A stretch of 40,559 nt of DNA from a virus (IMGVR_UViG_2541047813_000005:1-40559); one strand, 5' to 3'; counted from the first letter of the stretch, positions 3,264 through 36,008 are shown. A program made the numbers and translations. Notes: generated by a model not told the origin, from the letters alone.

Positions 3264-3409
3264 TTAAAGTTAGTTGGAAAGGCTTAATTTACTATTTATA
3301 GCCAGTCCTACTCCCACTCAATTATTTACGACAACCATAACCAATTGAGTGATAACACTTTTCCAAGCCTCAACTTTTCCCGTACCGTTTTATATACCGT
3401 CACCGGAAA

Positions 3410-5222: not shown

Positions 5223-5378
5223 AAAGACCGCCGATTACTGTGTATAATCCACCCCATTGGTTATTGGGTTTATAATACACATAAACCATATATGAATTAA
5301 ATTTTATGAGTCCACCTATCTCTAAATTACCCGTGAGGTGATATTGTTTCGTATCGCTATTTCCTACAGTATGGATAT

Positions 5379-5740
5379 ATGAATAACAGACATAATTGCT
5401 TTGACGTGATCAGGCTTATCGCATCACTTGTAGTCCTTGTAAGCCATCAATACCCAATTAGCGGCAGACCTGAGCCTTGCTTTTTCGGACTTACGTCGAT
5501 AGGTGGCATTGCTGTAATTGCTTTTTTCGCCCAACTAAACGTAACATCTTCGAAAAATATGCAAAGATTAGGATCAATCAGCGGATGATTTTTATCCATT
5601 CATTTTGCGCGGGTAAGTTATGTGGTGGGTTATCGGCATCCTTTCCGTGGTTCTCATCGTGGCGACGCTTGTCGTTAGGTCACATCTGCAGGATATTGAT
5701 AATGACTATTAGCCATAAGTGGTTTCAACGCTTTGGGTAA
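5379..5740 (+). pseudogene. Truncated/frameshifted acyltransferase-3 family (O-antigen acetyltransferase-like) lysogenic-conversion gene remnant
   Basis: N-terminus 'MNNRHNCFDVIRLIASLVVLVSHQ' matches the acyltransferase_3 start motif; reading frame breaks after about 70 aa; only about 120 codons remain before the convergent tailspike gene. Confidence 0.5.
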
Positions 5741-8078
5741 TGTAGTAGGCCACCCAGTTACCTGACTCATTAAATCTGTAAGCACAATTCAAACGAATCG
5801 GACCGATATTATTGAATGTGCTGAGCATTGTCCCACCAATACCATTTTTAACCAAAACTGTTGGGTTAGCAGATGATGACCCGGCTATCTTTATGTAAAC
5901 AATATCACCAACTACGGCAGACACTTTATCCAGCTCAATTGAATAGGTGAAGGCACCTGTACCAGCACTCATGATGATGTAGTACCTGGAGGGGTCAAGC
6001 CTTGGTTCTATTGTTAAAGTCCCAGCTGCTGCCACAGTGTGGTCGAGAAAGGTTCTCACCTGGAGGCTTGTATTTTGTGGAAACCTCGCCCTTGCCCTGT
6101 TGAAAGCGGGATCCATCACTGCGTAAAGTGGGCGAACGTTGTTTCTGTAGGATCTAACCAGAACATCACTACCGTGGAAGTCGTTGCTTTGTGATCCAGA
6201 AAGTGAGTGAACTGCCTCGACCTGGTTAATTGTCCCCTCTCCGACATAGCAGTCAGGGCTATTAACCACAAAATCGACGAACCTGATGTTTTGCGCAAAG
6301 TATGAGTTCAGGCGGAATGTGCTGTTTGTCGAGTTAACTACTGACTGAGCATTTGTGATTGAGTTGCCGACGATTGCGTGAATAGAGTTGATAGTCACTT
6401 CCTGGCAGTCAACCAGAAGCACCGCATCGTAAACAAGGTCAGTGGCAAATCCATCACTTTTATAGACTTCAATGTTTCCGATTTGCAGGGATGGCCTGTT
6501 TCTGGCTCGTACTCCGTTTTGCTTAACGTTGACGTGTACGTTATCGATAAATCCACCTGGCTCGCTGGCTGGGTTGGTTAGGTCGATTCCAACAAATGCC
6601 CCAAGCCCTTCGCTGTCCTTGACAACAAACCCTTCAACGCCGTCACTCAGTTCGACAAACTTCCACCAGTTGTTTGTGTTGAATCTGATGTCTACACCTA
6701 CGTTACCTCGAACGGACTTCATCTTAACGGCCACGCACTGGAATTGCGTACCTTCAACCTGCTGCACGTTATAGCTGCCGTATCCAGTGACATGCACTGA
6801 GCCGCTAAAAGCGTCGCCAATCAGCATGCCATTTACCCACGAATACTGTAGCACCGTCAGGTCATCACGCCCCTGTTGAGGACCGAAATGCGCTCCTAAT
6901 TTGAACTTCGCCCGGTGCGCAGTGAACATTTCCTCCCTGAGTGGAGTAAGAATACCGTACCGACCATTTCCGTTTTCCAGGCGAATCATGAATTTTCCGA
7001 TGTCGGCTTCTCCCTGGGAATAACTGGACTCCGGGTAGCTAACGGCCAGACCTACGGTCGATGCTGAGTCAGCATCCTTCACGCATAACTGGGTTTCTGT
7101 CCCAGCCGTATAAATTTTCACGCCATAGGGAACGGTTACGCACGCCGTCAGTGCGGAATCCCCTGTATGGTAGTTATCCATATCCAGAGAAACACCATTT
7201 GTAGGGCTCACCAGATATTTTCCTGCTGGCCAATAGAGTACCTTAGCTCCGCAATTGGACCAGCGGTTTAGGGCAAGAGTGTCATCTGCAATACCATCTC
7301 CCTTTGCTCCGAAGTGGTAAGGGGTAAGAAGATAGGTGTTGTGCTGATGTTGAGTAATAGTTACAGAATTAGCATAAGGTTGTTTAACTGCAACTAAAGC
7401 ATCCCCCTTTCCATCGGAAGAACTTGCTAACTGAATAAGCACATCAGATGCTGAACCAGATGGAGGAATAACAACAATCGCATTACCATCATTATCAAAT
7501 GCTGGCATCATATTCCGCCGAACTGCTGCTGGAGGTAACTGATTTATTGGCTCAGGAACTCGGAGAGTTCGGCTAAGGTTAGAGAATACAATGGTATCTA
7601 CATAGTTTTTTGTAGCTGCATCCTGAGGGTCGCGTGGGTCTTTCAGATTACGAATATAGTTATTAAGTGCGTCATACCAATTCGCTATACTGGATGGCTT
7701 ACACAACGCCAGCCGGAACCAGCTTCGAACCTGCTGAATCAGCATCGTTAGCTTATCAAAAGCATCCTCATGCACTTCTGCAAAGAACTTACCCTGATTA
7801 CGCAAATCAGTTTCCTGCGTAACCGGGAGGTCTCGTGATATAGAAATCTGATAACCGTTAGCCAACGCCTTCGACAGAATTACATTACCGCCGTTGTACC
7901 CTCCCGCACCAGTTACTGTGTAATCAGTATCAAGAGCCAGCACAGCAATATTTTCATCAAGGTCAACCACCTGAACAACCAGGTCTGATTTTTTGAAAAT
8001 ACGGAAGGTATACGGAAATGATGTCGTAACGCCGTTACCTGTGTATTCGTTGTGGTCAACTTCGGTTGAGACCGTCAT
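5709..8078 (-). CDS. Tailspike / tail fibre protein (receptor-binding)
   Basis: 789 aa; N-terminus 'MTVSTEVDHNEYTGNGVTTSFPYTFRIF' resembles the conserved particle-binding domain of podovirus tailspikes; Gly/Asn/Val-rich body consistent with beta-helix. Confidence 0.75.
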   Translation of the reverse strand: MTVSTEVDHNEYTGNGVTTSFPYTFRIFKKSDLVVQVVDLDENIAVLALDTDYTVTGAGGYNGGNVILSKALANGYQISISRDLPVTQETDLRNQGKFFAEVHEDAFDKLTMLIQQVRSWFRLALCKPSSIANWYDALNNYIRNLKDPRDPQDAATKNYVDTIVFSNLSRTLRVPEPINQLPPAAVRRNMMPAFDNDGNAIVVIPPSGSASDVLIQLASSSDGKGDALVAVKQPYANSVTITQHQHNTYLLTPYHFGAKGDGIADDTLALNRWSNCGAKVLYWPAGKYLVSPTNGVSLDMDNYHTGDSALTACVTVPYGVKIYTAGTETQLCVKDADSASTVGLAVSYPESSYSQGEADIGKFMIRLENGNGRYGILTPLREEMFTAHRAKFKLGAHFGPQQGRDDLTVLQYSWVNGMLIGDAFSGSVHVTGYGSYNVQQVEGTQFQCVAVKMKSVRGNVGVDIRFNTNNWWKFVELSDGVEGFVVKDSEGLGAFVGIDLTNPASEPGGFIDNVHVNVKQNGVRARNRPSLQIGNIEVYKSDGFATDLVYDAVLLVDCQEVTINSIHAIVGNSITNAQSVVNSTNSTFRLNSYFAQNIRFVDFVVNSPDCYVGEGTINQVEAVHSLSGSQSNDFHGSDVLVRSYRNNVRPLYAVMDPAFNRARARFPQNTSLQVRTFLDHTVAAAGTLTIEPRLDPSRYYIIMSAGTGAFTYSIELDKVSAVVGDIVYIKIAGSSSANPTVLVKNGIGGTMLSTFNNIGPIRLNCAYRFNESGNWVAYYITQSVETTYG

Positions 8079-8182
8079 GTTAAATCTCCAGATAGTCGCA
8101 GCACCCGTTGCGCCGCATATCTGGTTATTCTATTACCTGAAAAACCAGATATGGATAGCAAGACTGCAAATACGAATAGATA

Positions 8183-8197
8183 TTACCTTTCGGGTAA
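8183..8197. promoter_or_regulatory. Palindromic operator-like site ATTACC-TTTCG-GGTAAT
   Basis: Perfect TTACC-N5-GGTAA dyad in the intergenic region between the tailspike start and the small plus-strand ORF. Confidence 0.45.
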
Positions 8198-8272
8198 TTT
8201 GCAAAACGTGCTGGATAGCCAATAAATTATTTGGTACTGTTTATTAATACAGTTATTACATGGAGAGATAAG

Positions 8273-8530
8273 ATGCAGCGGTATCACTATCCACTGGAAG
8301 AAGGATTTACCGAAAGGATTCACACGCCGGGAGGCGTCAGGTCACTGGTGGAGGGATCGCACTTGATGAAATTACTCCGGGATCTCGATAAGGATGGATT
8401 TAATGTCGATGGCCCACTTGCCGAACTGACTGCACTGATTAACTACGTCACCAGCTCACAGATGTCTATGCAGGATCTGCAAACACATCTCGACTATTGT
8501 GCCGAACAACTACGAAAACAAACCACATAA
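8273..8530 (+). CDS. Hypothetical small protein (85 aa), opposite strand to late genes
   Basis: ORF 8231..8530; ATG 8273 with GGAG 7 nt upstream; operator-like site upstream; no recognisable motif. Confidence 0.4.
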   Translation: MQRYHYPLEEGFTERIHTPGGVRSLVEGSHLMKLLRDLDKDGFNVDGPLAELTALINYVTSSQMSMQDLQTHLDYCAEQLRKQTT

Positions 8531-8552
8531 AGAAAAGGCCGCGAAAGCGGCC
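8528..8552 (-). terminator. Hairpin terminator after small membrane-protein gene
   Basis: ggccgcgaaagcggcc hairpin (8537..8552) followed on the minus strand by UUUUCU. Confidence 0.5.
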
Positions 8553-8561
8553 TGTGACATG

Positions 8562-8858
8562 TCACGTCCCTTTTCTGAATGATAGCCATTCGAAAAATGA
8601 TGACATTCCACCGCAGACAATAGCAAAGATGATCCCACCAAAGAAGAGAAGGCCAGCCTGCCACCACTCCCACCGCCATACATCCACAGCGCCAACCATA
8701 CCAACAATCGCTCCAACAAATGGAATATAGCTCACGATGAAAGCAATGGGGGCTGCAATTATCCAGTGCAATCCCCACCATGATTCAAGCCCAGCCATAA
8801 TTGCTGCCAACTGAAAAAGACCAACGACGATATAAACAATGAATCCTATAGCTTGCAT
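8562..8858 (-). CDS. Small integral membrane protein (hypothetical)
   Basis: 98 aa, almost entirely hydrophobic with Trp-rich segments; stop codon embedded in GTGACATGTCAC palindrome. Confidence 0.5.
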   Translation of the reverse strand: MQAIGFIVYIVVGLFQLAAIMAGLESWWGLHWIIAAPIAFIVSYIPFVGAIVGMVGAVDVWRWEWWQAGLLFFGGIIFAIVCGGMSSFFEWLSFRKGT

Positions 8859-9053
8859 GTAGTCACCTATTTACCCAGTAAAAATCAGAGGCCTCCCCTC
8901 AATAAGGCTTGCAACAAGAACTATTCCCTGCACAACAAAGATGAACCAGCAAATAGCTTGAGTCTGAGGGTTAAGAAAATATTTGTAGCGGTCAATAAAC
9001 AACAATCCACCAGAAATTATCACACTCAAAATAATTAAAAACACAACACTTCC

Positions 9054-11528
9054 TTATTGCGGAGTGACATCCTGAGGTCGCCACCAGTATGTCTGGTTAA
9101 ACTCTTTCTTCGAACGTTGCTCCATTTTACGCAAATAGCCTGGTGAAAAATACTCCTGCATCTGGTTAAAGATCATGTGATCGAGAGCCGCCTTCAAGTA
9201 CCAGAGATTCGCACCAGGCATCAAACCTTTCCCCAGCTTCACCAGATCACCACCAGTCTGCTCACTCTTCCCTTCCACAGCATTTAACGGTATGCCCTGA
9301 GCAATCTTCACTACGTCATCAACCAGACCAGCTACCGGGCCAAGCATCGACGCCAGCGCGCCGCTTCCGTACCTAGTGTGATCTGACAATAAAAAGTCAC
9401 CGTAAAGGCCAAGACCACCACCTTTCAGTAGAGCACCAAGCCAAAATTTAGCAGCATCTTCTCCTGTCATCTCGCGAGGATTACGACCAGACGCAAGGTC
9501 GTTAAGTTGCTGCGACAAAGCGCCAAGAATGGTCGTACTGGCAATAAACGTCGCAATATATGCCGCACGCCCACCAGCAGACGGCATACCCATAGCGCGT
9601 GACCAGTGACGCATAACCACCGAGATAGGGAACGATTTAAACAGGAAAACACTTCTCGTTAATTCACCTTTCCATGTTCCACGCTGAATACCAGAACCGG
9701 TTATCAGTTGCTCACGTGCTCCCGGTGTAATAACAGCCATATCAACTTCTTCAGTTACGGCACCGAGCAGTTTACGCATTGCCTCAAATTTCACGCGTTC
9801 AGGCTCACCAAGATGTTTAACTGCTGAATCAGGGATACGCATAATGCTTTCCGGTGTCAGCATCGTATTATTGCCGTTCCCCCAGTCCTCCTGTTGCGCC
9901 AGCTTCCATACGCTCCAGTCTGTGTCAGTAATCCCTTTGCTTTTCAGGATACGAAAATCAGAATCATCGAGGCTACGAAGGTCTGGTGTCCGTGACACTA
10001 CTTCTCCCAGGCTTCCCATCATGGTTACGCCATAGGCGCGCTTGTGCGCATCTGACCATGCTGTAAGCCCACTGGCACGCATTACCGCCGTTGCAGCCCA
10101 ACGAGACACAGACGGCCCCATATTATCCATCGCCCAGCGGTTAACGCTGCCAAGTAGAGATTCCATCGCCAGGCCAGCGCGGCGCGCCCGCGCAAGCTCA
10201 GTACGGTTCGTTGGGTCCATAGCTTCAAGCTGGTTGCGAAATAACTGGTTCATTGGAAGGTTGGTAACCTTCGCAGACAGATACATGGTTCCAAGATCAG
10301 AGAACGATGACAGCAACGCGGATCCGAGTCTGCTGGCAACCAGCCAGTTGCGGATATTGTCAGACCATCGCGCGATGTGCGGATTCGCTACAGGCTGTGT
10401 TTTTCCGGAAATAAAGTTGTACAAGTTCTCTGTTTTGTTCGCCAGACGCTCGACGCTACCGGTTTTACTCGGGTTAGCTGTTGCCGTTTCTGCCTTAACC
10501 TGATCAAGAAGGGAGCGGAAAACATGATCGGGGTTTGGACCATATGTTTCCACCAGAGCAATATCTTTACTGATACCTTCCAGGTGACCGACCATGATTT
10601 CCCATAGAGAGCGATCGCCATAAAGTTGCTGATATTGCAGATAGGAATCTGCATCTTTGAAATGTATCTGTCGTGATGCATTACCACGGTTAGCACGTGC
10701 GCCGGAAATTCGCATTCCGGTATCAGTAAGCTTATTCAGCCCACCAGTAGCGATCGTGTTATAAGCCTCTCCAAGAAATGCAGACAACTCGGCATCGTTC
10801 ATCAGTTGTCCATCGGCTCGGATATAATATTTGCGATCCAGCTTACCTATAACATCGCTAACCCACTTATCCTTTGATACCGCCCCAACCTTTTCCATAG
10901 AATGATGTTGAGGGATCCCCCAGTTTTCGAGATAGCCAATGTCCCCACCAGCATCATTAAACCGGCGGCGCAGTAGATCTGTCACTTCTCTCCACGCCTT
11001 AGCACCTTTTCTTGCTTTAACATTGCCAGTATTTTGCCCTCGCATTTCATATACCAGGTCACGTACGCCAGCTTCATCTTCAAACAGGCCAAAAAAGCGA
11101 GGATCAACTGCTTCAAATGCCTCTTGCAATTGACTCAATGCATAATCACGAGTGGCTTTTGTTCTGGACTCAACAGAGAGGAAATTCGATTTACCGTCTG
11201 CATTAAAAGCAATAGTACGGTTAAGAGCGCCAAGTTTCCCATCAGCCCCTTGATAGCTATTGATAAATTTATCCAATCTCTGACGTGCGGCTATAGTGAG
11301 GGCCACACGACGTTTCTTTAATGCCGCTTCTCGCTGTAATTCTTCAGATGCCAATTGTGCTGCTCGATATAGCCGCTCTGATTCGGAAAGTTGTCTCCAC
11401 GACATCGGGTCATCACGAGCAATGGAGCGCATATTTCGATAAATGCGGTCTTCAATGTTCTGTATTTCTCGCTCCGTTAACGTGCGCTGCGCCGCCTGCT
11501 GGACCGCTTGTATACATTCCTGTCTCAT
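9054..11528 (-). CDS. Large virion protein (putative internal core/ejection protein)
   Basis: 824 aa; position between tail tubular genes and tailspike in a podovirus-type late operon; no catalytic motif recognised. Confidence 0.6.
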   Translation of the reverse strand: MRQECIQAVQQAAQRTLTEREIQNIEDRIYRNMRSIARDDPMSWRQLSESERLYRAAQLASEELQREAALKKRRVALTIAARQRLDKFINSYQGADGKLGALNRTIAFNADGKSNFLSVESRTKATRDYALSQLQEAFEAVDPRFFGLFEDEAGVRDLVYEMRGQNTGNVKARKGAKAWREVTDLLRRRFNDAGGDIGYLENWGIPQHHSMEKVGAVSKDKWVSDVIGKLDRKYYIRADGQLMNDAELSAFLGEAYNTIATGGLNKLTDTGMRISGARANRGNASRQIHFKDADSYLQYQQLYGDRSLWEIMVGHLEGISKDIALVETYGPNPDHVFRSLLDQVKAETATANPSKTGSVERLANKTENLYNFISGKTQPVANPHIARWSDNIRNWLVASRLGSALLSSFSDLGTMYLSAKVTNLPMNQLFRNQLEAMDPTNRTELARARRAGLAMESLLGSVNRWAMDNMGPSVSRWAATAVMRASGLTAWSDAHKRAYGVTMMGSLGEVVSRTPDLRSLDDSDFRILKSKGITDTDWSVWKLAQQEDWGNGNNTMLTPESIMRIPDSAVKHLGEPERVKFEAMRKLLGAVTEEVDMAVITPGAREQLITGSGIQRGTWKGELTRSVFLFKSFPISVVMRHWSRAMGMPSAGGRAAYIATFIASTTILGALSQQLNDLASGRNPREMTGEDAAKFWLGALLKGGGLGLYGDFLLSDHTRYGSGALASMLGPVAGLVDDVVKIAQGIPLNAVEGKSEQTGGDLVKLGKGLMPGANLWYLKAALDHMIFNQMQEYFSPGYLRKMEQRSKKEFNQTYWWRPQDVTPQ

Positions 11529-11533
11529 TTAAT

Positions 11534-15846: not shown

Positions 15847-15858
15847 CTTATTATCCCC

Positions 15859-25765: not shown

Positions 25766-26584
25766 ATGAAAAACTTCAAGGTAATTAGCATGTTTGAATC
25801 GTTTAAAGAGCTGTTTTTATCTACTGCCAATACTGCCGTGAATCGAGCCAAAAACCCTGTGCTTGGTGCTTTTGTTATGTCCTGGTGCGCCTTCAACTGG
25901 AAATCAATTCTTTATCTATTTTTTAGCAAATCAAACATAATAGATAAAATTTCATATATCTCAGATAACAGCACATGGAAAACTGTTATGTTTTATCCAT
26001 GCTTATCTGTAATTGCTATCTGCTGCCTATTACCATGGGTAAACAATATCATTAACGTATGGCAAGCAAAGCCTCTTGATAATAATGACTCAATCGAAAA
26101 TCACCTGAAGGCAAGAAAAATCCAGCGTGAAACCAGACTGCAGAGGTTATTGGCTAAAAAAGATGTTACATACGACAAAGTTAAGACTGGCGCGGAAAAA
26201 GACATCCAAGAGATGAAAGAAGAGATTATTCGATCAAAGAATAGTATGGGGGAATTGACTGCCGAGTTGAAAGCTAAAGATGACGAATTGAGATCCGCCA
26301 GTGCTCAGTTAGCAGCTCTAAATCATTCATTAAAAGAGATATCGGAAACTCTGGGAAGAATGAATGAGGCATATAAGACCCTCCAAAATGATTTCGACGA
26401 ATACAAACTCAAATACCCTGAAAAATCTCAAATAAAAAGCCTTGCACTTGGCAACGGCCAAACAATTAGCAACTTTTTGGAGCAACACAACTTATCCGGA
26501 TTAAAATCTGGTAAGCCAAACGTTTTTAATAACTTTGGTGTTCTATCTGGATTATCAGGTTTCGATGATAAAAATAAAGACTAA
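25766..26584 (+). CDS. Cargo (moron) protein: N-terminal hydrophobic/membrane region plus long coiled coil; function unknown, candidate exclusion/abortive-infection factor
   Basis: ORF 25694..26584, probable start ATG 25766; AT-rich codon usage unlike flanking late genes; opposite strand; stop overlaps terL stop convergently. Confidence 0.5.
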   Translation: MKNFKVISMFESFKELFLSTANTAVNRAKNPVLGAFVMSWCAFNWKSILYLFFSKSNIIDKISYISDNSTWKTVMFYPCLSVIAICCLLPWVNNIINVWQAKPLDNNDSIENHLKARKIQRETRLQRLLAKKDVTYDKVKTGAEKDIQEMKEEIIRSKNSMGELTAELKAKDDELRSASAQLAALNHSLKEISETLGRMNEAYKTLQNDFDEYKLKYPEKSQIKSLALGNGQTISNFLEQHNLSGLKSGKPNVFNNFGVLSGLSGFDDKNKD

Positions 26585-28056: not shown

Positions 28057-28649
28057 TGATTACCATCCTGACGTTCTTTGAGTCGCTTCCTGGCTGCTGC
28101 TATGCGATCAGCAATTGTCACATTCACATTAACATCCAGACGTTCTTTGAACGCGTTGACATCAACATGCTTACCAATCAGTTCGAGGTTCTTCACCTTG
28201 TCAGGCCATTTAATTTTTTTGAGGATTGTCTCTATCGAATCCTCGTTCATGTTCATGATGGTCGATGACAGATCAAAGCCACTAAGCGTAGTGCGCCAGA
28301 TTTTCGGCCACTCGCGGATTGGCTTAAGGCTCCCATCGTCGTTGAGGATGTCGATCACGTCCATCTGGTCGATCTCCACCAGGCGCATGAGAACGTAATC
28401 AGCACTGACGCGCATTCGTTTGTTGCGCTCCTCCATCAACTCGGCAATCCGTTTTTGAATGCGTTCATCGCGCATCATGACACTGGCTTTAACTGCCGCT
28501 GTATTTGGGGAGAATCCTGCGTTAATCGCTGCCTGAGTCTGGTTTTCAGGCGTTTTGATGTATGACTGGCAATAAGCCTCCTGCATTGCTGTTAGTGGCT
28601 TAAATTGCGTTGATTTGCGTTTATAGGTTTTAGGTTCAGCAGGCATCAT
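28053..28649 (-). CDS. Terminase small subunit
   Basis: ORF 28053..28745; likely start at internal Met (28649); 'AINAGFSPNTAAVKASVMMRD' resembles terminase small-subunit DNA-binding region. Confidence 0.65.
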   Translation of the reverse strand: MMPAEPKTYKRKSTQFKPLTAMQEAYCQSYIKTPENQTQAAINAGFSPNTAAVKASVMMRDERIQKRIAELMEERNKRMRVSADYVLMRLVEIDQMDVIDILNDDGSLKPIREWPKIWRTTLSGFDLSSTIMNMNEDSIETILKKIKWPDKVKNLELIGKHVDVNAFKERLDVNVNVTIADRIAAARKRLKERQDGNQ

Positions 28650-28758
28650 AACCACCGTGGTAATAGTTACCGTTGTGGTAATAGTACCATGCAAAATAAA
28701 GCCGCCATAGTTGGCGGCAGTATTCAAAACCATCAAATTCATCATGCATAATCTACTC

Positions 28759-28770
28759 GTGACATGTCAC
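28759..28770. repeat. 12-bp perfect palindrome GTGACATGTCAC (copy 2)
   Basis: Identical to 8554..8565; overlaps the stop codon of the upstream minus-strand gene in the same register. Confidence 0.6.
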
Positions 28771-29114
28771 ACTATTAATTTCGTTTCATGCCAGCCTTTA
28801 GTCACCCAGCATTGCGAGTCACCATTACACGGGCATGAATTAACTGGAACTCTCTCGCCGCACTTACCGCAACGTTTTCTGCTGATCGATTTTATACGCC
28901 CGCGCACGCGTGCATCATCCTGGCGGATCAGTAACGCTATATACTCACCAAATTCGTAAGGCGCACGCCCGGGGCGACGCGTGGCACAGTTACGCTCCAG
29001 CATTTCAATTTCCTGAGCATCAAGCACAATTTCCAGCTTACGCACACCAGATGCAGCTTGTCTGGCTCTCTGAGCGGCTTTGCGCTCTGCGGGGGATTTA
29101 GCCACGAATCGCAC
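28767..29114 (-). CDS. Small Cys-rich (zinc-ribbon-like) protein, possible late-gene regulator
   Basis: 115 aa; C-terminal 'CGKCGERVPVNSCPCNGDSQC'; immediately upstream of terS. Confidence 0.45.
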   Translation of the reverse strand: MRFVAKSPAERKAAQRARQAASGVRKLEIVLDAQEIEMLERNCATRRPGRAPYEFGEYIALLIRQDDARVRGRIKSISRKRCGKCGERVPVNSCPCNGDSQCWVTKGWHETKLIV

Positions 29115-29219
29115 TCCACGCCAGATTGATTAATGACTCCCAGGTAATATAAACCCGGATACCAGCAGCCAGGCCGAAACCAATCACCATGGCATAAAGC
29201 AGAGCGTTGCACTTGTCCA

Positions 29220-30035
29220 TCACTTCACCTCCTGCGGCGGTTCTGGTAACGGCATCCAGTACAAGGCGTTCCCTAACCACGATAAAGTGCCGTCGCTCAA
29301 CTCCACGTATTCCCCTTGTACCTGTCCTGCCATATACTCGCCGTGCTTTGAATAAATTAAAATCCAATCATCTTGAGCGGGCATTCGCTCACTACAGCTT
29401 ATCCAACCATCCGGAGTTACCGGAGAGTTGCCATTCACAAGGTCAGCTCGAACATATAGTGTGTCATCATGGTGCTGATTGTGGCTGCACCACGTTAATT
29501 CGCTTAACTCGCCATCTTCTGGCCATACTCCAGCTGTTTGCAGCCAGATATGGGCTGGCGCATCTTGGCAAGGTGTATTAACTGGCAACTTGTAAGTTTG
29601 GCTTACAGGTTGGCTACCCTGAAGCATGGCAGCGTGGCAGGCATCCTCAACGTTCTTCACTGCATCTGCGCAGTAGTTATAGCGATTGCATTCCACTAAT
29701 TTCTGCTTGAGGTTTTCAATTGCTAACTCGATTTCATCCGGCACTACCGGCTCTGGTTGGATAGTGACGTTGGCAAAGGCAGCACGCAAACCGGCCTTAA
29801 TTTCCTCTACTTCATCAGCGCCTAGCGATGAATCTGACAATGCGTGATGGAATGCGTAAGCCATGTCGTCGTTGATTTCTACAGGCACACTATCAGCCTT
29901 GCGGCGCTCCTGTAGCTCGCGCAGAGCCGCTGCAACATAATGACTATTGTGCTGGTCAGCCCACAGAATGAGCCGAATCAACGTTGCATTTGAAACGTAT
30001 TCGTCTGTTAGTTTGCTATTGGTAAAAGTGGTCAT
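29220..30035 (-). CDS. DUF551-like phage protein (hypothetical)
   Basis: 271 aa; C-terminal 'WMPLPEPP' motif recalled as typical of DUF551 proteins of enterobacterial prophages. Confidence 0.5.
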   Translation of the reverse strand: MTTFTNSKLTDEYVSNATLIRLILWADQHNSHYVAAALRELQERRKADSVPVEINDDMAYAFHHALSDSSLGADEVEEIKAGLRAAFANVTIQPEPVVPDEIELAIENLKQKLVECNRYNYCADAVKNVEDACHAAMLQGSQPVSQTYKLPVNTPCQDAPAHIWLQTAGVWPEDGELSELTWCSHNQHHDDTLYVRADLVNGNSPVTPDGWISCSERMPAQDDWILIYSKHGEYMAGQVQGEYVELSDGTLSWLGNALYWMPLPEPPQEVK

Positions 30036-30397
30036 GCTGTAGCCCCTTCTTGATATTTTTCAAACCAGAACACAACCGGGTCAGATTTCATTTCAACCAA
30101 TCCCATACGAACCAGCGCCTTGCCTTTCCCGGACGCAAGGAATTCACGACGACCATCACTGATAATTCGCCGATAATCTTCCAGGCTACTGCAATGCTTG
30201 TGCAGATTGCATGGGTGGCATGCCGGAACCATGTTGGATATATCGTCACGATCCTGGTGAAGCATATTTCCAGCAAAACGAATGACCGGTTTTACGTGGT
30301 CTGCGTGCCACTTTTCGCCAAGTTCGCAGCCGCAATAAGCACAGCGACCGCCGAACTTCATGCGTAATTCTGCACGTTGTTTTTTCGTCAGTGCCAT
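30032..30397 (-). CDS. HNH endonuclease
   Basis: ORF 30032..30487; likely start at Met 30397 (AAGGAAAA RBS); 'CAYCGC...HADHVKP...N...CHPCN' HNH motif. Confidence 0.7.
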   Translation of the reverse strand: MALTKKQRAELRMKFGGRCAYCGCELGEKWHADHVKPVIRFAGNMLHQDRDDISNMVPACHPCNLHKHCSSLEDYRRIISDGRREFLASGKGKALVRMGLVEMKSDPVVFWFEKYQEGATA

Positions 30398-30398
30398 T

Positions 30399-30659
30399 TC
30401 AGTTTTCCTTATATGGATTAATTTTATTGTGCAGTGTATTGAACGACGCCCATACCACGTCGTTATACAATTCAATAACTGGCTCAATTATTTTCCCGAT
30501 TCCCCATACCAGAATTAACGGGGATATCGGTATCATCAATACGATAAACAGAATGAGAAACAGGAATTCTGTCGTTCTACTCTTTCGCGGATATTCTTTT
30601 CTGAATAATGTCGGCACATCACTCTCCTTTGATGCGAATGCCAGCGGCACGGGAATCAT
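30399..30659 (-). CDS. Small membrane protein (hypothetical)
   Basis: 86-aa ORF with TM segment 'FLFLILFIVLMIPISPLILVWGIG'; its stop lies 1 nt from the HNH start; weak RBS. Confidence 0.3.
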   Translation of the reverse strand: MIPVPLAFASKESDVPTLFRKEYPRKSRTTEFLFLILFIVLMIPISPLILVWGIGKIIEPVIELYNDVVWASFNTLHNKINPYKEN

Positions 30660-31311
30660 TCCATCGCTTTACTTCTTCACGAATTACGTCAATGCATTCT
30701 TTCGAATCCATTAGGTAATCTTCATCAAAAAGCCTTTCCTGTTCGTTTTCTATCGCAACAATGATTGCTTCAACTAACTTTTGTGCCTGAGAACCACTTT
30801 CTAACTCTGCAATGCGCTTCTCTGCGGCTTCCAGCTTCTCGCGCATATCGTCAACGTACTCGACCAGAGATCCGCCAGCAGGAATTTCGCACTCCTCGAC
30901 CAGTTGGAAGTAGATATCAGCTGCGGCCCGTGTGTTGCTATGCCTAGCGTCGCCCATCTCACCTTCACGAAGAGCATCGCGTTCGGCGGTAAGATTGGCT
31001 ATTTTGCTGTCTTTGCCTTCCAGCTCAACGCGAAGCCTCCCTACCGTTAGCGCAATATCCTCGTTCTCCTGGTCGCGGCGTTTTATGTATTGCTGGTTTC
31101 TTTCCCGTTCATCCAGCAGTGCCAAAGCAATCTTTGGATTAAAGGCAGCAATAAATTCAGCGTTGTTTTTCAGAACGTGTTGCGCAATGGCCTGACTACT
31201 TAGTCGGACCTCATAACCACGTGCGCCACGGTGTGGTTTATATGAGTCCCAGTCTCCCCACGTTGCCTTCTCTGCCGCCTCACGCAGTGCCTGGTAATTA
31301 ATTTCGCTCAC
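30619..31311 (-). CDS. Ea22-like family protein
   Basis: 230 aa; N-terminus 'MSEINYQALREAAEKATWGDW' resembles ead/Ea22-like prophage proteins; coiled-coil middle. Confidence 0.55.
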   Translation of the reverse strand: MSEINYQALREAAEKATWGDWDSYKPHRGARGYEVRLSSQAIAQHVLKNNAEFIAAFNPKIALALLDERERNQQYIKRRDQENEDIALTVGRLRVELEGKDSKIANLTAERDALREGEMGDARHSNTRAAADIYFQLVEECEIPAGGSLVEYVDDMREKLEAAEKRIAELESGSQAQKLVEAIIVAIENEQERLFDEDYLMDSKECIDVIREEVKRWNDSRAAGIRIKGE

Positions 31312-31757
31312 TGGTTGCCTCCTTTGCGTAGCTCGGCGGCAAAAGCTACTGCGTGATCATGATGTTCAAGTGTGTATGCACACTCCGCAAACATCTCCAC
31401 GCCTTGCGCTCGTACTTCAGCCAGAAAAGCATCGGTGGCTGGGGTGTCTGATTGCATAGACTTTGCGCGATAGTCATTCCACCCTCTTGCATACATGGGA
31501 TTAACTTGCACTCCATCTTTTACACAATATGCCTGCCCTCCACGGTTGATAACCTTGATTTCGTCCATAGCGCCAGACTTCATCCCCGCATTCTCCGCTG
31601 CCAGCGCATTAGCACGCACCAGTTGCACTTCCAGTTGCGTTGCCAAATCGCTGATCAGTTTTGCCACACTACGCATATCAACGGCACCACATTCTGCTTT
31701 CAGTTCCGAAGCCATCTCATGCCCGGCGGCAACTAACCCTTTGATATTACTTTCCAT
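31308..31757 (-). CDS. Hypothetical phage protein
   Basis: 149 aa, overlaps the Ea22-like start by 4 nt. Confidence 0.5.
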   Translation of the reverse strand: MESNIKGLVAAGHEMASELKAECGAVDMRSVAKLISDLATQLEVQLVRANALAAENAGMKSGAMDEIKVINRGGQAYCVKDGVQVNPMYARGWNDYRAKSMQSDTPATDAFLAEVRAQGVEMFAECAYTLEHHDHAVAFAAELRKGGNQ

Positions 31758-31818
31758 CTTTACCCTCGCTTATCCACATAACTTATTGATTACATTGATA
31801 ACTAAAAAGATCGTCGAT

Positions 31819-32163
31819 TCAGAACTCTTCGATGTTCCAGCCACCACCTGCTTTCTTTGGCTTAACCGTTACCCCGATGATTCGGAACGGATACTGATCT
31901 GCGGCGACTTTGGTTTTCACCCTGGCGTCGTCGGTCCAGAAACCTTTCACTTCGTGCAGTTCCATCTCGCCGGTGGCGAGCATCACAGCAAAATCGGGCG
32001 TATAGAACGTGTTGTCAGCTAACCGCAGCTTGATACCCTCGAATCGATACCAGGCGATTTCCCCTGCACGTTTACGCAGCTCAAGGTGCTGGCAATACGC
32101 AGATTCTGTTTTGTTCATCTGGCCTGTTTTGAGTCGACCAAGAGCCTGTATCTGTTTTCTCAT
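31819..32163 (-). CDS. DUF1064-like phage protein (hypothetical)
   Basis: 114 aa; recalled similarity to DUF1064 proteins found next to lambdoid replication genes; operator-like dyad abuts its start codon. Confidence 0.5.
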   Translation of the reverse strand: MRKQIQALGRLKTGQMNKTESAYCQHLELRKRAGEIAWYRFEGIKLRLADNTFYTPDFAVMLATGEMELHEVKGFWTDDARVKTKVAADQYPFRIIGVTVKPKKAGGGWNIEEF

Positions 32164-32166
32164 GAT

Positions 32167-32181
32167 TTACCTCTAAGGTAA
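32167..32181. promoter_or_regulatory. Operator-like dyad TTACC-TCTAA-GGTAA abutting start codon of the DUF1064-like gene
   Basis: On the minus strand reads TTACCTTAGAGGTAA-ATC-ATG. Confidence 0.45.
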
Positions 32182-32228
32182 TTAAAAACCACATAAGACA
32201 CGAAATCAATAGAGTTTAGAATATTTTA

Positions 32229-32243
32229 TTACCTGATAGGTAA
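32229..32243. promoter_or_regulatory. Operator-like dyad ATTACC-TGATA-GGTAAT
   Basis: Perfect dyad in the 117-bp gap between the P-like and DUF1064-like genes. Confidence 0.45.
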
Positions 32244-32280
32244 TTGTTGAGACGTAAAAAAATGCGCTATCGCGCTGGTA

Positions 32281-33081
32281 TTACTTGATAAATCCTGCCG
32301 CCTTTCCCCGCTTGTATTCCTCCATCAGCCACTGCGCTGGTGTTATTCCCCCAAGGGTGGCGGCGTTAGGCATGCACCCGAAACTTCGCCCTGGTGGATG
32401 GTAAACGTCTCTCCCTGTGTCCGGAGGTGTACTCATGGGTTCTGGCTTTGCCTGTATGCTGATCACCGGATCGGGTATCTGCTGTCCGGAAGCCACCTTT
32501 TTCGCCCAATCATCGAGCAGCCTGCGCGCGTGTTTCTCAACCTCAATCTCGCTAAGCTGGCGCTGATACATTGCACGGCGGGTATCACATACGACCCAGT
32601 ACATAACCGGATGTCGCCACGGGAATCTTTCGGGACCACCAGGATATAAACTTTTTTCCTTGCTGTACCGGTGAAACTCCGCCATCACATCGTCAATGGT
32701 GACGCCAAGAACCATCTTGCTGTCTTTACACCACTTGATGAATTGCCCTGGCGACGGCCAGAACGGAGATTCACTGGCGCGGGCGTGGCGCATACCAGCA
32801 GAAACCTGTTCACGGGTACGTATTCCCCCTTCGGCAAACGCAGCAATCCACTGCTGTTTTGCAGCAACTTCCTGCTCTGGCGTCTTCAGGTTGGTTACCA
32901 CTGCCGCCGGAAACAGTTGTTTCAGCTGTTTGAAAAGGGCATCAACAAGCCTCTCTGCTGACATGTTCACCACATTGTCATTGTTGACGTACTGATGCTC
33001 ATAACCTGACATGCGAGAAAGGGCTTCTCCGTCACGGTTTTGTATCGCGGTAAAAACGTTGTTCACAAGAAATCCTCCCAC
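32281..33081 (-). CDS. Replication protein P-like (helicase loader)
   Basis: 266 aa; 'GMRHARASESPFWPSPGQFIKWC' closely parallels lambda P 'GMRVARRQNRPFLPSPGQFVAWC' (from memory). Confidence 0.75.
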   Translation of the reverse strand: MGGFLVNNVFTAIQNRDGEALSRMSGYEHQYVNNDNVVNMSAERLVDALFKQLKQLFPAAVVTNLKTPEQEVAAKQQWIAAFAEGGIRTREQVSAGMRHARASESPFWPSPGQFIKWCKDSKMVLGVTIDDVMAEFHRYSKEKSLYPGGPERFPWRHPVMYWVVCDTRRAMYQRQLSEIEVEKHARRLLDDWAKKVASGQQIPDPVISIQAKPEPMSTPPDTGRDVYHPPGRSFGCMPNAATLGGITPAQWLMEEYKRGKAAGFIK

Positions 33082-33860
33082 GCTTCAGGGCTGTTCCAGT
33101 GCGGAACGTTGTTATCAGGTAATGTTGATTGCTTCTGTCTGCTAATCTGCAGCCGCCTTGCCAGCTTCTGCTCCCACTGTGCCTGATGGTATGCCTTACC
33201 CTCAGCCATCCAGTAAATTCTGAACTCTGCAAGTTCCTGTGCCGTTGGCAGACTGTCCAGGTAGATCCCCTGCAATGAGCTTTTCCGAAGAAAGTCATCT
33301 GATGGGTGCCATTGTTCATGCATGACAAATTTGCCTAATTGCCCTGGCCCACCAGGAGGAACAAAGTTATTCATCACGGCGTTGTTTGCGCCGGGGTCAT
33401 GAGGCACAGAATCCCCGGTTTTTGTCCTGCTCTCCCTCTCTTGGTTAAATGACTGGTTATATGACTGGTTCTGGATCCCGTTTTTGGGATCATTCAACAT
33501 CCCGTTTTTGGGATCATTCAACATCCCGTTTTTGGGTATATTCCCGTTTTCGGGTTCATTATCCCCTTCCCGGTTGCCTTTAATGTTCCCGTTTTTGGTT
33601 ATATTAAGAGAGAAAACCCGCACTCTTTTCGTCGCTCCCTTTCTCTCTCCGGTATCTGAAATAAGCCCCATTTTCATGAGCGATATAAGTCCGGCCTGCA
33701 CGGTTTTTTTATTCAGGCAAGTGTCTTTAACGAGGCGTTCTATGCTGGGGTAGCAGAGGTTATATTCATCGGCTCTGTCAGCCATCGAGAGCAGTATGAG
33801 CTTTAATGACGAGCTACCTGGATCTGTCTCCCAGGCCCAATCTGTTGCATGTCTGCTCAT
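33063..33860 (-). CDS. Replication initiator (lambda O-like) with internal origin iterons
   Basis: 265 aa; N-terminal HTH-like region; direct DNA repeats inside the gene encode 'NDPKNGML' repeats; precedes the P-like gene with overlap. Confidence 0.65.
   Translation of the reverse strand: MSRHATDWAWETDPGSSSLKLILLSMADRADEYNLCYPSIERLVKDTCLNKKTVQAGLISLMKMGLISDTGERKGATKRVRVFSLNITKNGNIKGNREGDNEPENGNIPKNGMLNDPKNGMLNDPKNGIQNQSYNQSFNQERESRTKTGDSVPHDPGANNAVMNNFVPPGGPGQLGKFVMHEQWHPSDDFLRKSSLQGIYLDSLPTAQELAEFRIYWMAEGKAYHQAQWEQKLARRLQISRQKQSTLPDNNVPHWNSPEAWEDFL
33449..33607. repeat. Iteron array (putative replication origin)
   Basis: Two perfect 24-bp copies 'atcccgtttttgggatcattcaac' (33475..33498, 33499..33522) plus degenerate copies with core CCCGTTTT(T/C)GG; preceded by 2x 'atgactggtt'. 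Confidence 0.65.
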
Positions 33861-33875
33861 GATTAATCTCCGCTA

Positions 33876-34076
33876 TCAGCTTGAATGTTGTGGGGAGGAA
33901 TTAATCATGATCTGCTTAATCTCTGCCCTGATACGACGGTTTGATTCCATGGTGCACTCAACACAGTGTCCGTTGTAAACCCAGCGTTCACTGTCATGTC
34001 CGTGCTTACATGTTTTTCCGGTGTAGTAGCGTTTAAGTCCGCGCTTTGCGGCATCAATACGTGTAATGATTTCCAT
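33876..34076 (-). CDS. Small zinc-ribbon-like protein (hypothetical early regulator)
   Basis: ORF 33876..34139; likely start at Met 34076; 'CKHGH...NGHCVEC' Cys/His cluster. Confidence 0.4.
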   Translation of the reverse strand: MEIITRIDAAKRGLKRYYTGKTCKHGHDSERWVYNGHCVECTMESNRRIRAEIKQIMINSSPQHSS

Positions 34077-34156
34077 GGTAAGACCTGTTATTAGTATTGG
34101 GATTACGGTTATTTTGTGCTGACACAAAAAAAAGATCAACCAGATTTGGTTATTTA

Positions 34157-34171
34157 TTACCTTTGAGGTAC
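34157..34171. promoter_or_regulatory. Operator-like dyad TTACC-TTTGA-GGTAC
   Basis: Between cro-like gene and replication genes. Confidence 0.4.
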
Positions 34172-34180
34172 GAATAGATA

Positions 34181-34205
34181 TGAAAAGACCGCCGGGTGGC
34201 GGTCT
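34181..34205 (-). terminator. Hairpin after cro-like gene (weak terminator, tR1-like position)
   Basis: agaccgcc-gggt-ggcggtct hairpin followed on minus strand by UUUCA. Confidence 0.35.
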
Positions 34206-34226
34206 ACAGAGGGTTGTAGCTGGATA

Positions 34227-34457
34227 TCATGAGTAGAAGAAGTATGCCAGTTCTGCTTTTGAGCGCAGCCATTGTCTTGTTTTACAGGCTTTAAAAAGCC
34301 CATTCATCAATACTTTACCTGGCATTTTGCGCTTACCTGTTAAGTGAGTCTGGATATAGTGACTCGTCGTTCCGGCTTCCTGTGCGAAGGCTTCACGCTC
34401 ATCCGGAGTAAGTGCAAGCCAGTGCTTTTTGAAATCGAAATGTCCGTTATCGCTCAT
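34227..34457 (-). CDS. Cro-like HTH regulator
   Basis: 76 aa; HTH-like 'EAFAQEAGTTSHYIQTHLTGKR'; divergent from repressor-like gene across an operator-rich region. Confidence 0.55.
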   Translation of the reverse strand: MSDNGHFDFKKHWLALTPDEREAFAQEAGTTSHYIQTHLTGKRKMPGKVLMNGLFKACKTRQWLRSKAELAYFFYS

Positions 34458-34493
34458 AGCTATTGCCTGATATTTATTTCAGATAATAAATAT

Positions 34494-34556
34494 TCACCCA
34501 TAAGGTAACAAAAATCAAGGATAGTTACCCATGAGGTGCATTTACCTGTTGGGTAA
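34494..34556. promoter_or_regulatory. Immunity-region operator cluster (three TTACC-N5-GGTAA-type dyads) with divergent promoters
   Basis: Sites 34494..34508 (TCACC-cataa-GGTAA), 34525..34539 (TTACC-catga-GGTGC), 34542..34556 (TTACC-tgttg-GGTAA) between the cro-like and repressor-like starts. Confidence 0.5.
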
Positions 34557-34611
34557 TATTGCTTTAAATTGAATCATCTACTGATTCATATATGAGGCGA
34601 TTTTCCAGAAA

Positions 34612-35196
34612 ATGAAAAGTATCCAGGACGTCCGCAGGCAAAATCTCAACGACTTGATCGACCGTGAATTCAATGGTGTTCAGACGCGGATGGCAGAAAA
34701 ACTTGGAACTCAGGCAAATCTGGTAAACCGCTGGGCTCTTGGCAAGAAGGTTATCGGCGACCAGGTTGCACGAAAAATTGAAGCTGCCGCCAATAAACCC
34801 CGTAACTGGCTTGATATCGATCGCTCGCTTTCTCAGGAAGGTTTTCAGCCTGTCGGCCCAAGCGACATTGGTCAGCTGGCGGCTCACAACCTGGAACGCT
34901 GGATGAGCGAAAGCCGCGACCTTTCAACGCAGGGAAAACTTCACCGCGCATCCGGCGTCGCCCAGGTGACAATCAGCCGCCTGTTAAACAATGAGGTCAG
35001 CGTTTCCATTTCCACCCTGGAGAATGTTGCATCCGCATTCGGGCGTCATGGCTATGAATTACTGATTCACCCGCACGACCCTGCGACTATCAACTATGAC
35101 CGCTCGCGCTACGCATTGTTACCCGAAACCGAGAAAGCAAAGATCGAAAGTTACATTGAATTTGTCATCAACCAGAACGAAAAAAACAAACAATAA
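34612..35196 (+). CDS. Repressor-like DNA-binding protein with two HTH-like regions (candidate phage repressor)
   Basis: 194 aa; 'QTRMAEKLGTQANLVNRW' and 'ASGVAQVTISRLLNNE' HTH-like segments; no obvious S24 peptidase motif. Confidence 0.55.
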   Translation: MKSIQDVRRQNLNDLIDREFNGVQTRMAEKLGTQANLVNRWALGKKVIGDQVARKIEAAANKPRNWLDIDRSLSQEGFQPVGPSDIGQLAAHNLERWMSESRDLSTQGKLHRASGVAQVTISRLLNNEVSVSISTLENVASAFGRHGYELLIHPHDPATINYDRSRYALLPETEKAKIESYIEFVINQNEKNKQ

Positions 35197-35216
35197 AACT
35201 ATAGTTTTCAGCAAGT

Positions 35217-35240
35217 AAGCCGCCTCATGGCGGCTTTTTT
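35217..35240 (+). terminator. Rho-independent terminator after repressor-like gene
   Basis: aagccgcc-tcat-ggcggctt hairpin followed by TTTTTT. Confidence 0.65.
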
Positions 35241-35253
35241 ATTGCCTGTTAGA

Positions 35254-35331
35254 TTACCTTTTGGGTAATTTTTTTTAACTCATATCTATTGACATCAAAC
35301 CAGATACGCATAATTATTACCTCAACGGTAA
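35254..35331 (+). promoter_or_regulatory. Early-left promoter with two flanking operator dyads
   Basis: Dyads at 35254..35268 (ATTACC-ttttg-GGTAAT) and 35317..35331 (TTACC-tcaac-GGTAA); TTGACA 35289..35294, 16-nt spacer, TAATTA 35311..35316. Confidence 0.5.
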
Positions 35332-35805: not shown

Positions 35806-36008
35806 AACCAACACTCATCTCATTGCTGCGAGGTGGAAAACACAGCATCCGAGATATGGCAAAGATTCTTGGTATCTCAAGATCGAAGGTTTCTTGGTTC
35901 ATCGCTGAGCTTGAACGTCGCAAATGGGTAGAGGTAACCAGGAGCGCAATATATTTCCACGATGGAACCCGTTCCAACAAGCAGAACGAATACAAGGTTA
36001 AGTTATGA
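35802..36008 (+). CDS. Small HTH/winged-helix DNA-binding protein
   Basis: 68 aa; 'IRDMAKILGISRSKVSWFIAELE' HTH-like. Confidence 0.5.
   Translation: MKPTLISLLRGGKHSIRDMAKILGISRSKVSWFIAELERRKWVEVTRSAIYFHDGTRSNKQNEYKVKL

Follow-up and report, generated by a model that had tools for sequence, protein, structure and literature searches.

A dispersed palindrome as the putative operator of the Rep repressor in an Escherichia coli prophage of the ε15/φV10 group

The DNA analysed here (the window, 40,559 nucleotides) carries an E. coli prophage that belongs to the ε15/φV10 group (Uetakevirus), and the question it raises is what reads the 15-bp palindrome TTACC-N5-GGTAA that recurs between its genes. 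When all 5-mer hyphenated palindromes are ranked without bias, this string comes first in the window, and among the spacers of 0-11 bases scanned, that of five bases alone recurs, save for one N3 match. There are eight exact copies against a mean of 0.02 in shuffled sequence (eight were reached in 0 of 100 shuffles), and five more with a single mismatch, which makes 13 against a shuffle mean of 0.63 and a shuffle maximum of 3. The enrichment over shuffled sequence expected by the initial annotation thus held and its repeat is real, but the 12 sites it listed become 13 with at most one mismatch, together with a 14th copy carrying two mismatches, which lies between two of the sites of the rep/cro intergenic region (Table 1). 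Matches with two mismatches are as a group near chance (20 observed, 10 expected), and 19 of them fall within genes, the exception being this very copy.

All 13 sites and the two-mismatch copy are intergenic, as had been claimed, in a window of which intergenic DNA makes up 7.8% (chance of 13/13 placement, 0.078^13 ~ 4e-15), the two sites at terS counting as such only if this gene starts at 28646, as in ε15. The longer terS reading frame annotated in φV10 would enclose both and would also read through a rho-independent terminator (28701-28718); the start is here corrected to 28646, the ε15-type start.

Table 1. Palindromic sites and associated features of the window; operator and promoter names are predictions
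Feature	Position	Strand	Remarks
Candidate operator, one mismatch (GGTGA)	5327..5341		between lysis cassette (start 5222, minus) and ORF 5379
ORF, 69-aa acyltransferase-like remnant	5379-5588	plus	
Candidate operator, exact	8183..8197		between tailspike (start 8078, minus) and ant (start 8273, plus)
LexA box, perfect TACTGT-N8-ACAGT	8235..8253		at predicted ant transcription start
ant, Ant antirepressor homologue	8273..8530	+	89.5% identical to SPC32H Ant
Candidate operator, exact	25130..25144		divergent region: head operon (p06 start 25039, minus) / tRNA-Arg (25467, plus)
Operator-like site of cargo promoter, one mismatch (GGTAT)	25747..25761		in spacer and -10 of ATGACC-17-TATAAT
Second terS operator, one mismatch	28649..28663		18 bp from first; ends 2 nt before start codon 28646
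terS operator, exact	28667..28681		directly after extended -10-like TGgTACTAT, upstream of terS
DUF1064 operon pair, downstream operator, exact	32167..32181		62 bp from partner
DUF1064 operon pair, upstream operator, exact	32229..32243		
Promoter-like TTGATC-17-CAAAAT	34139-34111	minus	conserved; heads p42-DnaT-P; post-cro operator centred at ~-60
Post-cro operator, one mismatch (GTACC, minus strand)	34157..34171		past cro terminator 34186-34205
cro-like gene, divergent from rep	34227..34457	-	φV10 p41 100%, ε15 gp39 76%; phrog_35, transcriptional repressor
Predicted PR, TTGTTA-17-TATTAT	34511-34483	minus	
OR1, one mismatch (TCACC)	34494..34508		in -35/spacer of predicted PR of cro-like gene
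OR2, two mismatches, TTACCCATGAGGTGC	34525..34539		positional homologue of the middle OR site of ε15/SPC32H
OR3, exact	34542..34556		rep-proximal side of rep/cro intergenic region
rep, Rep repressor, 194 aa	34612..35196	+	100% identical to φV10 p40 and ZX5 ORF21
OL2, exact	35254..35268		directly past rep terminator; 63 bp upstream of OL1, centre to centre
Predicted PL, TTGACA-17-AATTAT	35289-35317		
OL1, exact	35317..35331		starts at last base of predicted PL -10 hexamer

Among the sites the ACC/GGT cores are invariant while the centre varies freely, the pattern of a palindrome recognized by a protein. This bears on the idea that the palindromes work in RNA, where small hairpins would control translation, guide RNase processing or cause termination: a hairpin of 5-8 bp is possible at each site, and two sites overlap a Shine-Dalgarno sequence, at terS (28649) and at the DUF1064 gene (GAGG, within the site at 32167). 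These hairpins would, however, be weak (-1 to -7 kcal/mol) and lack a T-tract, and several sites precede the predicted start points (in the -35, in the spacer or at ~-60), so that they would not be transcribed from the accompanying promoter. On account of these energies and positions the RNA reading was rejected, and we regard it as most improbable.

The natural candidate for the reader is the product of rep, the gene flanked on one side by the OR sites and on the other by the OL sites. By homology Rep is an XRE-type HTH protein of the family of ε15 gp38 and SPC32H Rep. It matches the latter (PDB 5D50) over its full length (residues 1-190, phmmer E = 4e-42) at 42-43% identity with 81 invariant alignment columns, and is 42% identical to ε15 gp38, being itself of the φV10 subtype. 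In this family an N-terminal HTH is followed by a middle, HTH-like domain for dimerization and a C-terminal one for tetramerization. The two subtypes share without change the helix segment NLVNRW, a putative recognition segment, and the C-terminal segment YDxxxYAxLPxxEKxKIxSxIxFVxxQN is conserved. A Pfam search of Rep (E <= 1) returned HTH-type families only, with HTH_3 at 106-147 and an HTH-like match at the N-terminus; Peptidase_S24, the C-terminal autocleavage domain that lambda-type repressors have together with an Ala-Gly cleavage site, was absent from its matches. We consider, with a probability of about 0.9 for the explanation as a whole, that the palindrome is the putative operator of Rep, through which the prophage units are silenced jointly and from which they are released by antirepression. 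Direct binding of (A)TTACC-N5-GGTAA(T), 15-17 bp, by this Rep subtype is what the homology and layout lead us to infer.

The relatives point the same way. In seven Uetakevirus genomes TTACC-N5-GGTAA is the top-ranked palindrome with 8-11 exact copies each, the range of φV10, ε15, SPC32H, Tyrion, BUCT711 and TL-2011b, and when eight equivalent positions are aligned in φV10, ε15, SPC32H and Tyrion, the sites are conserved where the intergenic DNA around them has diverged. Moreover, the ε15 record (AY150271.2) marks ATTACC-N5-GGTAAT, the identical sequence, as 'protein_bind, repressor, lysogeny' at seven of these dispersed positions. ε15 and the window carry it alike ahead of terS and of gp3, between gp19/ant and the tailspike, at OL and before the gene that follows the replication module; in particular, window sites 28667/28649, 25130, 8183 and 32229/32167 align with ε15 12-27, 2931-2947, 19895-19911 and 35906-35922. 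The ε15 sequence has further sites that its record does not annotate: those at OR, at the lysis cassette, upstream of int and at the second position of the 62-bp pair. The phages differ in that ε15 has three OL sites and the window two, and in that the window has a further site, placed in a cargo promoter. The relevant ε15 study is said to be that of Kropinski et al. 2007 (Virology 369:234). The motif, its reading as a repressor operator and its dispersed layout are already annotated in ε15, and the breadth of the regulon, which had been thought unusual, is a conserved layout of the genus; a text search of the literature for the consensus string and its half-sites found no relevant paper. What had been read as operators of an HTH repressor at the heads of transcription units is borne out by the position of rep between OR and OL, the overlap with predicted promoters and the identical ε15 annotation.

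The link to Rep extends beyond these phages. Rep homologues occur in 36 of 50,697 phage records, those examined being ε15-like (Uetakevirus) genomes, and a search of GTDB genomes using the Rep alignment gave three loci only (prophages in Erwinia dacicola and two Citrobacter species), all with the motif. Every Rep homologue found, including those three bacterial ones located by Rep homology alone, has the motif flanking it, with matching OR and OL geometry. The motif thus accompanies Rep-encoding elements in Escherichia, Salmonella, Enterobacter, Klebsiella, Erwinia and Citrobacter, which, like the excess of exact sites over shuffled sequence, is hard to reconcile with a host transcription factor site or with a chance or compositional repeat. 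We found no point in support of either, the non-prophage left end of the window comprising positions 1-3400 only, and we know of no E. coli regulator with such a consensus; this explanation, too, we deem very improbable.

A regulator other than Rep had been offered as an alternative user of the motif, a suggestion that gained no support. In the form considered here, the main ligand of the sites would be the Cro-like protein (34227-34457) or a further phage regulator. The cro-like gene diverges from rep and matches a phage family of transcriptional repressors. In classical switches Cro and the repressor share operators, and between the φV10 and ε15 subgroups, in which the operator is unchanged, the Cro-like protein is the better conserved (76% against 42% for Rep). 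On the other hand, the ε15 record credits the sites to the repressor, the putative recognition segment of Rep is invariant across the subtypes, and binding by Cro exclusively would leave Rep without operators. In ZX5, furthermore, overexpression of the identical repressor alone abolished free phage and lowered holin and endolysin transcripts by >99.9%. We therefore consider it improbable that Rep is not the main ligand, though the Cro-like protein may bind the Rep sites and the two proteins likely share OR.

If the sites are Rep operators, paired N-terminal domains of Rep would bind each palindrome. The dimeric HTH regulator envisaged initially was right as to the HTH repressor, but the homologous SPC32H Rep is reported to be a tetramer rather than a simple dimer, which binds palindromic sites and which Ant disassembles. 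The antirepression system of SPC32H is reportedly the subject of Kim and Ryu 2013 (J Virol) and Kim et al. 2016 (PNAS). The window resembles the SPC32H Rep-Ant-LexA system (PDB 5D50, 5D4Z) in Rep, Ant, LexA box, operator motif and layout; the Reps are 42% identical, and the tetramer and the binding of Ant and operator are reported properties of the SPC32H protein. The small plus-strand gene near the tailspike is by homology that of an Ant antirepressor and not cargo, with a LexA box upstream that is conserved in φV10, ε15 and SPC32H. Induction would proceed by antirepression, with no cleavage of the repressor: upon DNA damage LexA would leave the box at ant, Ant would be made, Rep would be inactivated and the units would be released together.

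Most sites overlap or flank promoter-like sequences, recognized as consensus matches only: those of PL, PR, the replication unit beyond cro, the operon from DUF1064 to p55, terS-terL, the tRNA-Arg unit, the cargo gene at 25790 and the ant region. One repressor would therefore lock almost every terminator-bounded unit directly. It is tempting to compare this with phage P1, in which a single immunity repressor, C1, directly controls many units through operators scattered over the genome, but the likeness is an analogy only, since the P1 operators are asymmetric 17-bp sequences, C1 is unrelated in sequence and antirepression by Ant/Coi is wired differently. As with lambda cI, the repressor gene has several operators on either side, which overlap divergent promoters, and a higher-order oligomer could bridge sites; unlike cI, Rep lacks the S24 autocleavage domain and would be inactivated by an antirepressor, its operators reach far past OL and OR, and the candidate loops span ~62 bp around single promoters instead of 2.4 kb.

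The spacing of the sites is itself conserved. OL1 is kept in φV10, ε15, SPC32H and Tyrion, the distance equivalent to OL2-OL1 is 62 bp in the relatives, and the OR spacings of 17-18 and 30-31 bp are likewise retained. At the DUF1064 operon the first base of the downstream site is the last of a conserved promoter-like TTGATT-17-TTTAAT, and this type of pair persists with its 62-bp spacing in ε15 and Tyrion, where the downstream gene encodes a RuvC-like resolvase. In every genome examined, pairs 62-63 bp apart thus bracket two promoters, PL and that of the DUF1064/RuvC operon. We infer that one Rep tetramer may bridge each pair, clamping and wrapping the promoter, which is conceivable because the fold of the C-terminal domain of SPC32H Rep has been linked to DNA looping. 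The 'weak' half-sites also recur: GGTGA at the lysis site (TCACC/GGTGA also in φV10, SPC32H and Tyrion, exact in ε15) and at OR1, and GGTAT upstream of int and at the cargo gene, may be forced by fused -10 elements; at the post-cro GTACC site, whose variant is found also in φV10 and Tyrion, no fused -10 element was identified. Small details that had gone unreported are the constancy of the pair spacing, the retention of weak half-sites fused to -10 elements and the presence of an operator inside a cargo promoter. That pair clamping, forced half-sites and operators in accessory promoters together hold an unreported mechanism is a speculation we advance tentatively and would not bet on; were the clamp true, it would offer a concrete DNA target for the still uncharacterized repression mechanism of the Rep tetramer.

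Which units the dispersed operators serve can be judged from their geometry. In front of the three late operons (head, tailspike, lysis), 29-43 nt separate the operator from a conserved late-promoter-like element downstream of it; for this reason direct repression of the late promoters is unsupported and was rejected, and the promoters of the divergent accessory units have more support as targets. Operator 25130 covers the -10 position of a predicted promoter on the plus strand, the -35 of which, TTGACA (25108-25113), is invariant and at fixed spacing in five genomes, and operator 8183 ends 1 nt before the ant -35-like TTGCAA. The site at 25747 has the design of the int-upstream site of φV10, ε15, SPC32H and Tyrion (TTACCYTAAAGGTATAMT) and is unchanged in a variant of the cassette 92-94% identical to it. 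The initial proposal of operators at cargo genes is hence supported for the tRNA-Arg unit and the gene at 25790-26584. The tRNA-Arg unit, the gene in the moron slot and ant would each have an operator inside their own promoter, which would place the 'cargo' in the lytic rather than the lysogenic programme.

What these results mainly show is that reading the sequence alone was enough to rediscover a genuine regulatory code. In annotation, each transcription unit of φV10-type prophages, which are frequent in E. coli (562 of 5426 complete genomes have a match to the immunity region), can be delimited as running from operator to terminator, with the terS start and the identity of ant as further gains. 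No heteroimmune ε15-like relative was found among 80 IMG/VR loci (TerL 98-99% identical) or in the GTDB genomes scanned with the Rep alignment; Rep is 98-100% identical in all IMG/VR loci reaching the immunity region, save two. One of these has P, DUF1064 and p55 and no match to Rep, Cro or DnaT; in the other, ε15-like late genes are joined to an early region of lambda on one contig, which may be an assembly chimera. In the divergent region of the lysis cassette and the acyltransferase-like remnant the promoter assignment is tentative. A tblastn search with the remnant detected no homology to known phage O-acetyltransferases; its N-terminal FDxxRxxAxxxVxxxH-like motif resembles, by eye, that of acyltransferase-3 proteins.

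The palindrome TTACC-N5-GGTAA is present in eight exact copies in the 40,559-base window, against a mean of 0.02 in dinucleotide-preserving shuffles, and with at most one mismatch allowed the number rises to 13 (0.63 expected); a chance origin of the motif is excluded. Among all hyphenated palindromes of 5-mers with spacers of 0-10 bases, an unbiased scan places it first, and its half-sites are separated by five bases throughout, save for one N3 match. On a gene map made by carrying across the annotation of φV10, intergenic DNA constitutes 7.8% of the window, and all 13 sites fall within it rather than in coding DNA (chance about 4e-15). Matches with two mismatches number 20 (10 expected), a single one of them, 34525, being intergenic; it falls precisely between the two OR sites. 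Comparison of these 14 sites reveals invariant ACC and GGT cores, flanks that prefer A/T (ATTACC...GGTAAT) and a free centre. The repeated intergenic palindrome described in the initial annotation is confirmed, while the count of 12 sites given there was slightly low.

The window represents a prophage of E. coli from the ε15/φV10 group, genus Uetakevirus; it is reversed in orientation with respect to φV10, and its immunity region has matches in 562 of 5426 complete E. coli genomes. The palindromes are the operator system of ε15-like phages, already known and not new: the ε15 GenBank record (AY150271.2) contains seven features labelled 'protein_bind, repressor, lysogeny', with sequences corresponding to ATTACC-N5-GGTAAT. 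Exact copies number 8-11 each in φV10, ε15, SPC32H, Tyrion, BUCT711 and TL-2011b, and the motif ranks first or nearly so among palindromes in every genome examined. When eight intergenic regions are aligned across the window, φV10, ε15, SPC32H and Tyrion, the sites form conserved islands at equivalent positions (see the table), even amid fully diverged neighbouring DNA. The relatives possess an additional site upstream of int, at a position corresponding to one just past the window end. Together with the presence of a repressor (Rep) homologue, the ε15 annotation and the conserved positions support the earlier proposal that these are operators of an HTH regulator.

Operator sites (named by first base), predicted promoters and other features, in window coordinates
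Feature	Coordinates	Match to motif	Predicted promoter (consensus match) and layout
Conserved, between lysis cassette and serotype-conversion slot	5327	one mismatch	
Conserved, between ant and tailspike	8183	exact	
Conserved, between head operon and tRNA/moron slot	25130	exact	
Cargo gene promoter	25747	one mismatch	ATGACC-17-TATAAT containing the operator-like site, GGTAT fused to -10
Conserved, upstream of terS, two sites 18 bp apart	28649, 28667	one mismatch, exact	rho-independent terminator 28701-28718, then TGgTACTAT, final T = first base of 28667
Conserved, upstream of DUF1064 gene (RuvC-like gene in ε15, Tyrion), pair 62 bp apart	32167, 32229	exact, exact	conserved TTGATT-17-TTTAAT, ending on first base of 32167; partner 62 bp upstream
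Conserved, after cro terminator	34157	one mismatch	post-cro unit: site centred about -60 from conserved TTGATC-17-CAAAAT
Conserved, OR, three sites, spacings 17-18 and 30-31 bp	34494, 34525, 34542	one mismatch, two mismatches, exact	PR: TTGTTA-17-TATTAT; 34494 within -35/spacer
Conserved, OL	35254, 35317	exact, exact	PL: TTGACA-17-AATTAT, ending on first base of 35317; partner 35254 63 bp upstream
Late element, lysis, tailspike and head operon heads (minus strand)	5271-5294, 8130-8153, 25065-25088		
LexA box	8235-8253		
ant	8273-8530		
rep	34612-35196		
p55	28767-29105		
Palindrome GTGACATGTCAC	8554-8565, 28759-28770		
terS start, ε15-type (198 aa); φV10-style (224 aa)	28646; 28727		
Variable slot; cargo gene	25467-26584; 25790-26584		
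RecE-like; RecT-like	36005-36826; 36796-37764		
69-aa ORF	5379-5588		
Leftmost gene group	224-3013		

The Rep protein shares 100% identity with φV10 p40 and the ZX5 repressor, and it is homologous over its full length to SPC32H Rep (PDB 5D50; E = 4e-42, 42-43% identity). The domain search returned only HTH-type domains and no S24 peptidase domain. The NLVNRW segment of the N-terminal HTH is invariant between both Rep subtypes, which fits the unchanged half-site; no clear heteroimmune relative was found for analysis of repressor/operator co-variation. Homologues occur in 36 of 50,697 phage records, those examined being all ε15-like, and three prophages located by Rep homology alone (in Erwinia dacicola, Citrobacter werkmanii and C. 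braakii) have the motif in the same arrangement at OR and OL. A site for a host factor has no support; the motif follows Rep-encoding elements across six genera. When the identical protein was overexpressed in ZX5, free phage disappeared and transcripts for holin and endolysin fell by more than 99.9%. SPC32H Rep is described as a tetramer on palindromic sites, with DNA-binding pairs contributed by different dimers, that is dismantled by the antirepressor Ant; its C-terminal domain has a fold linked to DNA looping, and its mechanism of repression is said to be little characterised.

Promoter assignments are consensus matches only, and the geometry is inferred from them. At OR, the Cro-like protein may share the sites with Rep, while its exclusive binding to the palindromes is unlikely. 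The 32167 site also contains the Shine-Dalgarno sequence of the DUF1064 gene, and the second terS site (28649) stops 2 nt short of the ε15-type start codon. A role of the palindromes as RNA hairpins is unlikely: such hairpins are weak, and many sites would lie outside the transcript of the promoter each accompanies. Returning to operators, in the head/tRNA region an invariant TTGACA is found exactly 16 nt from the operator in 5/5 genomes, with a variable spacer sequence; this fixed distance would place the -10 (TACCTT) within the operator, oriented toward tRNA-Arg. The layout of the cargo promoter, which precedes a phrog_4780 gene of no assigned function, is the same as that of the int-upstream site in the relatives. 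Unreported aspects of this arrangement, as far as the predicted promoters suggest, would be the strictly conserved operator pairs 62-63 bp apart that bracket two of them, the conserved weakened half-sites fused to putative -10 elements, and the operators embedded within accessory and cargo promoters.

The lysis, tailspike and head operons have in common, at their heads, the element CATATnTGGTT-N7-(G)TAwwAn. CATATnTGGTT-N7-TAwwAn is matched four times in all against 0.27 expected, three times at these heads, and it is kept at 3/3 heads in φV10, ε15 and SPC32H and in the head and lysis regions of Tyrion. It looks like a dedicated late-promoter signature, for which p55 is one candidate factor. 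In each of these three divergent regions the operator lies 29-43 nt upstream of the element, and is therefore better suited to control of the accessory promoter facing the other way than of the late promoter itself. Late genes may be kept off in the lysogen indirectly, e.g. if they need a product of an early unit that is under operator control.

Near the tailspike, the small gene on the plus strand, noted earlier as operator-adjacent, can now be identified as an antirepressor homologue that shares 89.5% identity with SPC32H Ant. The predicted transcription start of its promoter-like TTGCAA-18-TAAATT coincides with a perfect LexA box (TACTGT-N8-ACAGT), conserved in relatives, and Rep operator 8183 abuts the -35; from these positions, both LexA and Rep may control ant. 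The gene and the box match the LexA-to-Ant-to-Rep antirepression pathway reportedly described in SPC32H by Kim and Ryu in 2013.

Several further observations were made in the window and in relatives. The exact 12-bp palindrome GTGACATGTCAC recurs at operon ends in every relative (loci L001-L004, L007 and L008), usually right next to a rho-independent terminator (following terL, the long structural operon and p55), and could be the site of a second regulator or a termination-linked element. The ε15-type start of terS is more plausible than the φV10-style one, whose ORF would cross a terminator and two operators, so that the φV10 and PGAP annotations are probably too long. Locus L069 (IMGVR_UViG_3300045988_054982) combines a lambda early region, which includes cI, O and P and shares 99.9% identity with evolved lambda strains, with ε15-like genes for p55, terS, terL and the head; it lacks Rep but keeps the operators at terS and in the head region, and is a hybrid that arose either naturally or as a chimera of assembly.

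Both tRNA-Arg(TCT) and the 264-aa phrog_4780 gene, the latter with weak coiled-coil-like matches, lie in the variable slot that separates the head operon from terL; this cassette has matches in 56 of 5426 E. coli genomes, and both contexts examined are the same slot in ε15-like prophages. RecE-like and RecT-like proteins are encoded by two overlapping ORFs, whereas φV10 annotates a single 586-aa RecET fusion, which reflects either a frameshift or a sequencing error in the window or the φV10 record. A tblastn comparison of the 69-aa ORF, whose N-terminus (FDVIRLIASLVVLVSH) is acyltransferase-3-like by eye, with the O-acetyltransferases of φV10, TL-2011b, SPC32H and Tyrion gave no significant match; the ORF is probably the acetyltransferase remnant of the initial annotation. 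The leftmost 3.4 kb of the window extend beyond the φV10 gene map and encode an AAA_15/AAA_21 ATPase of 504 aa, a fragment of an rve_3 integrase core and a protein carrying a receiver-like domain, which may constitute a defence or mobile island adjoining the attachment site.
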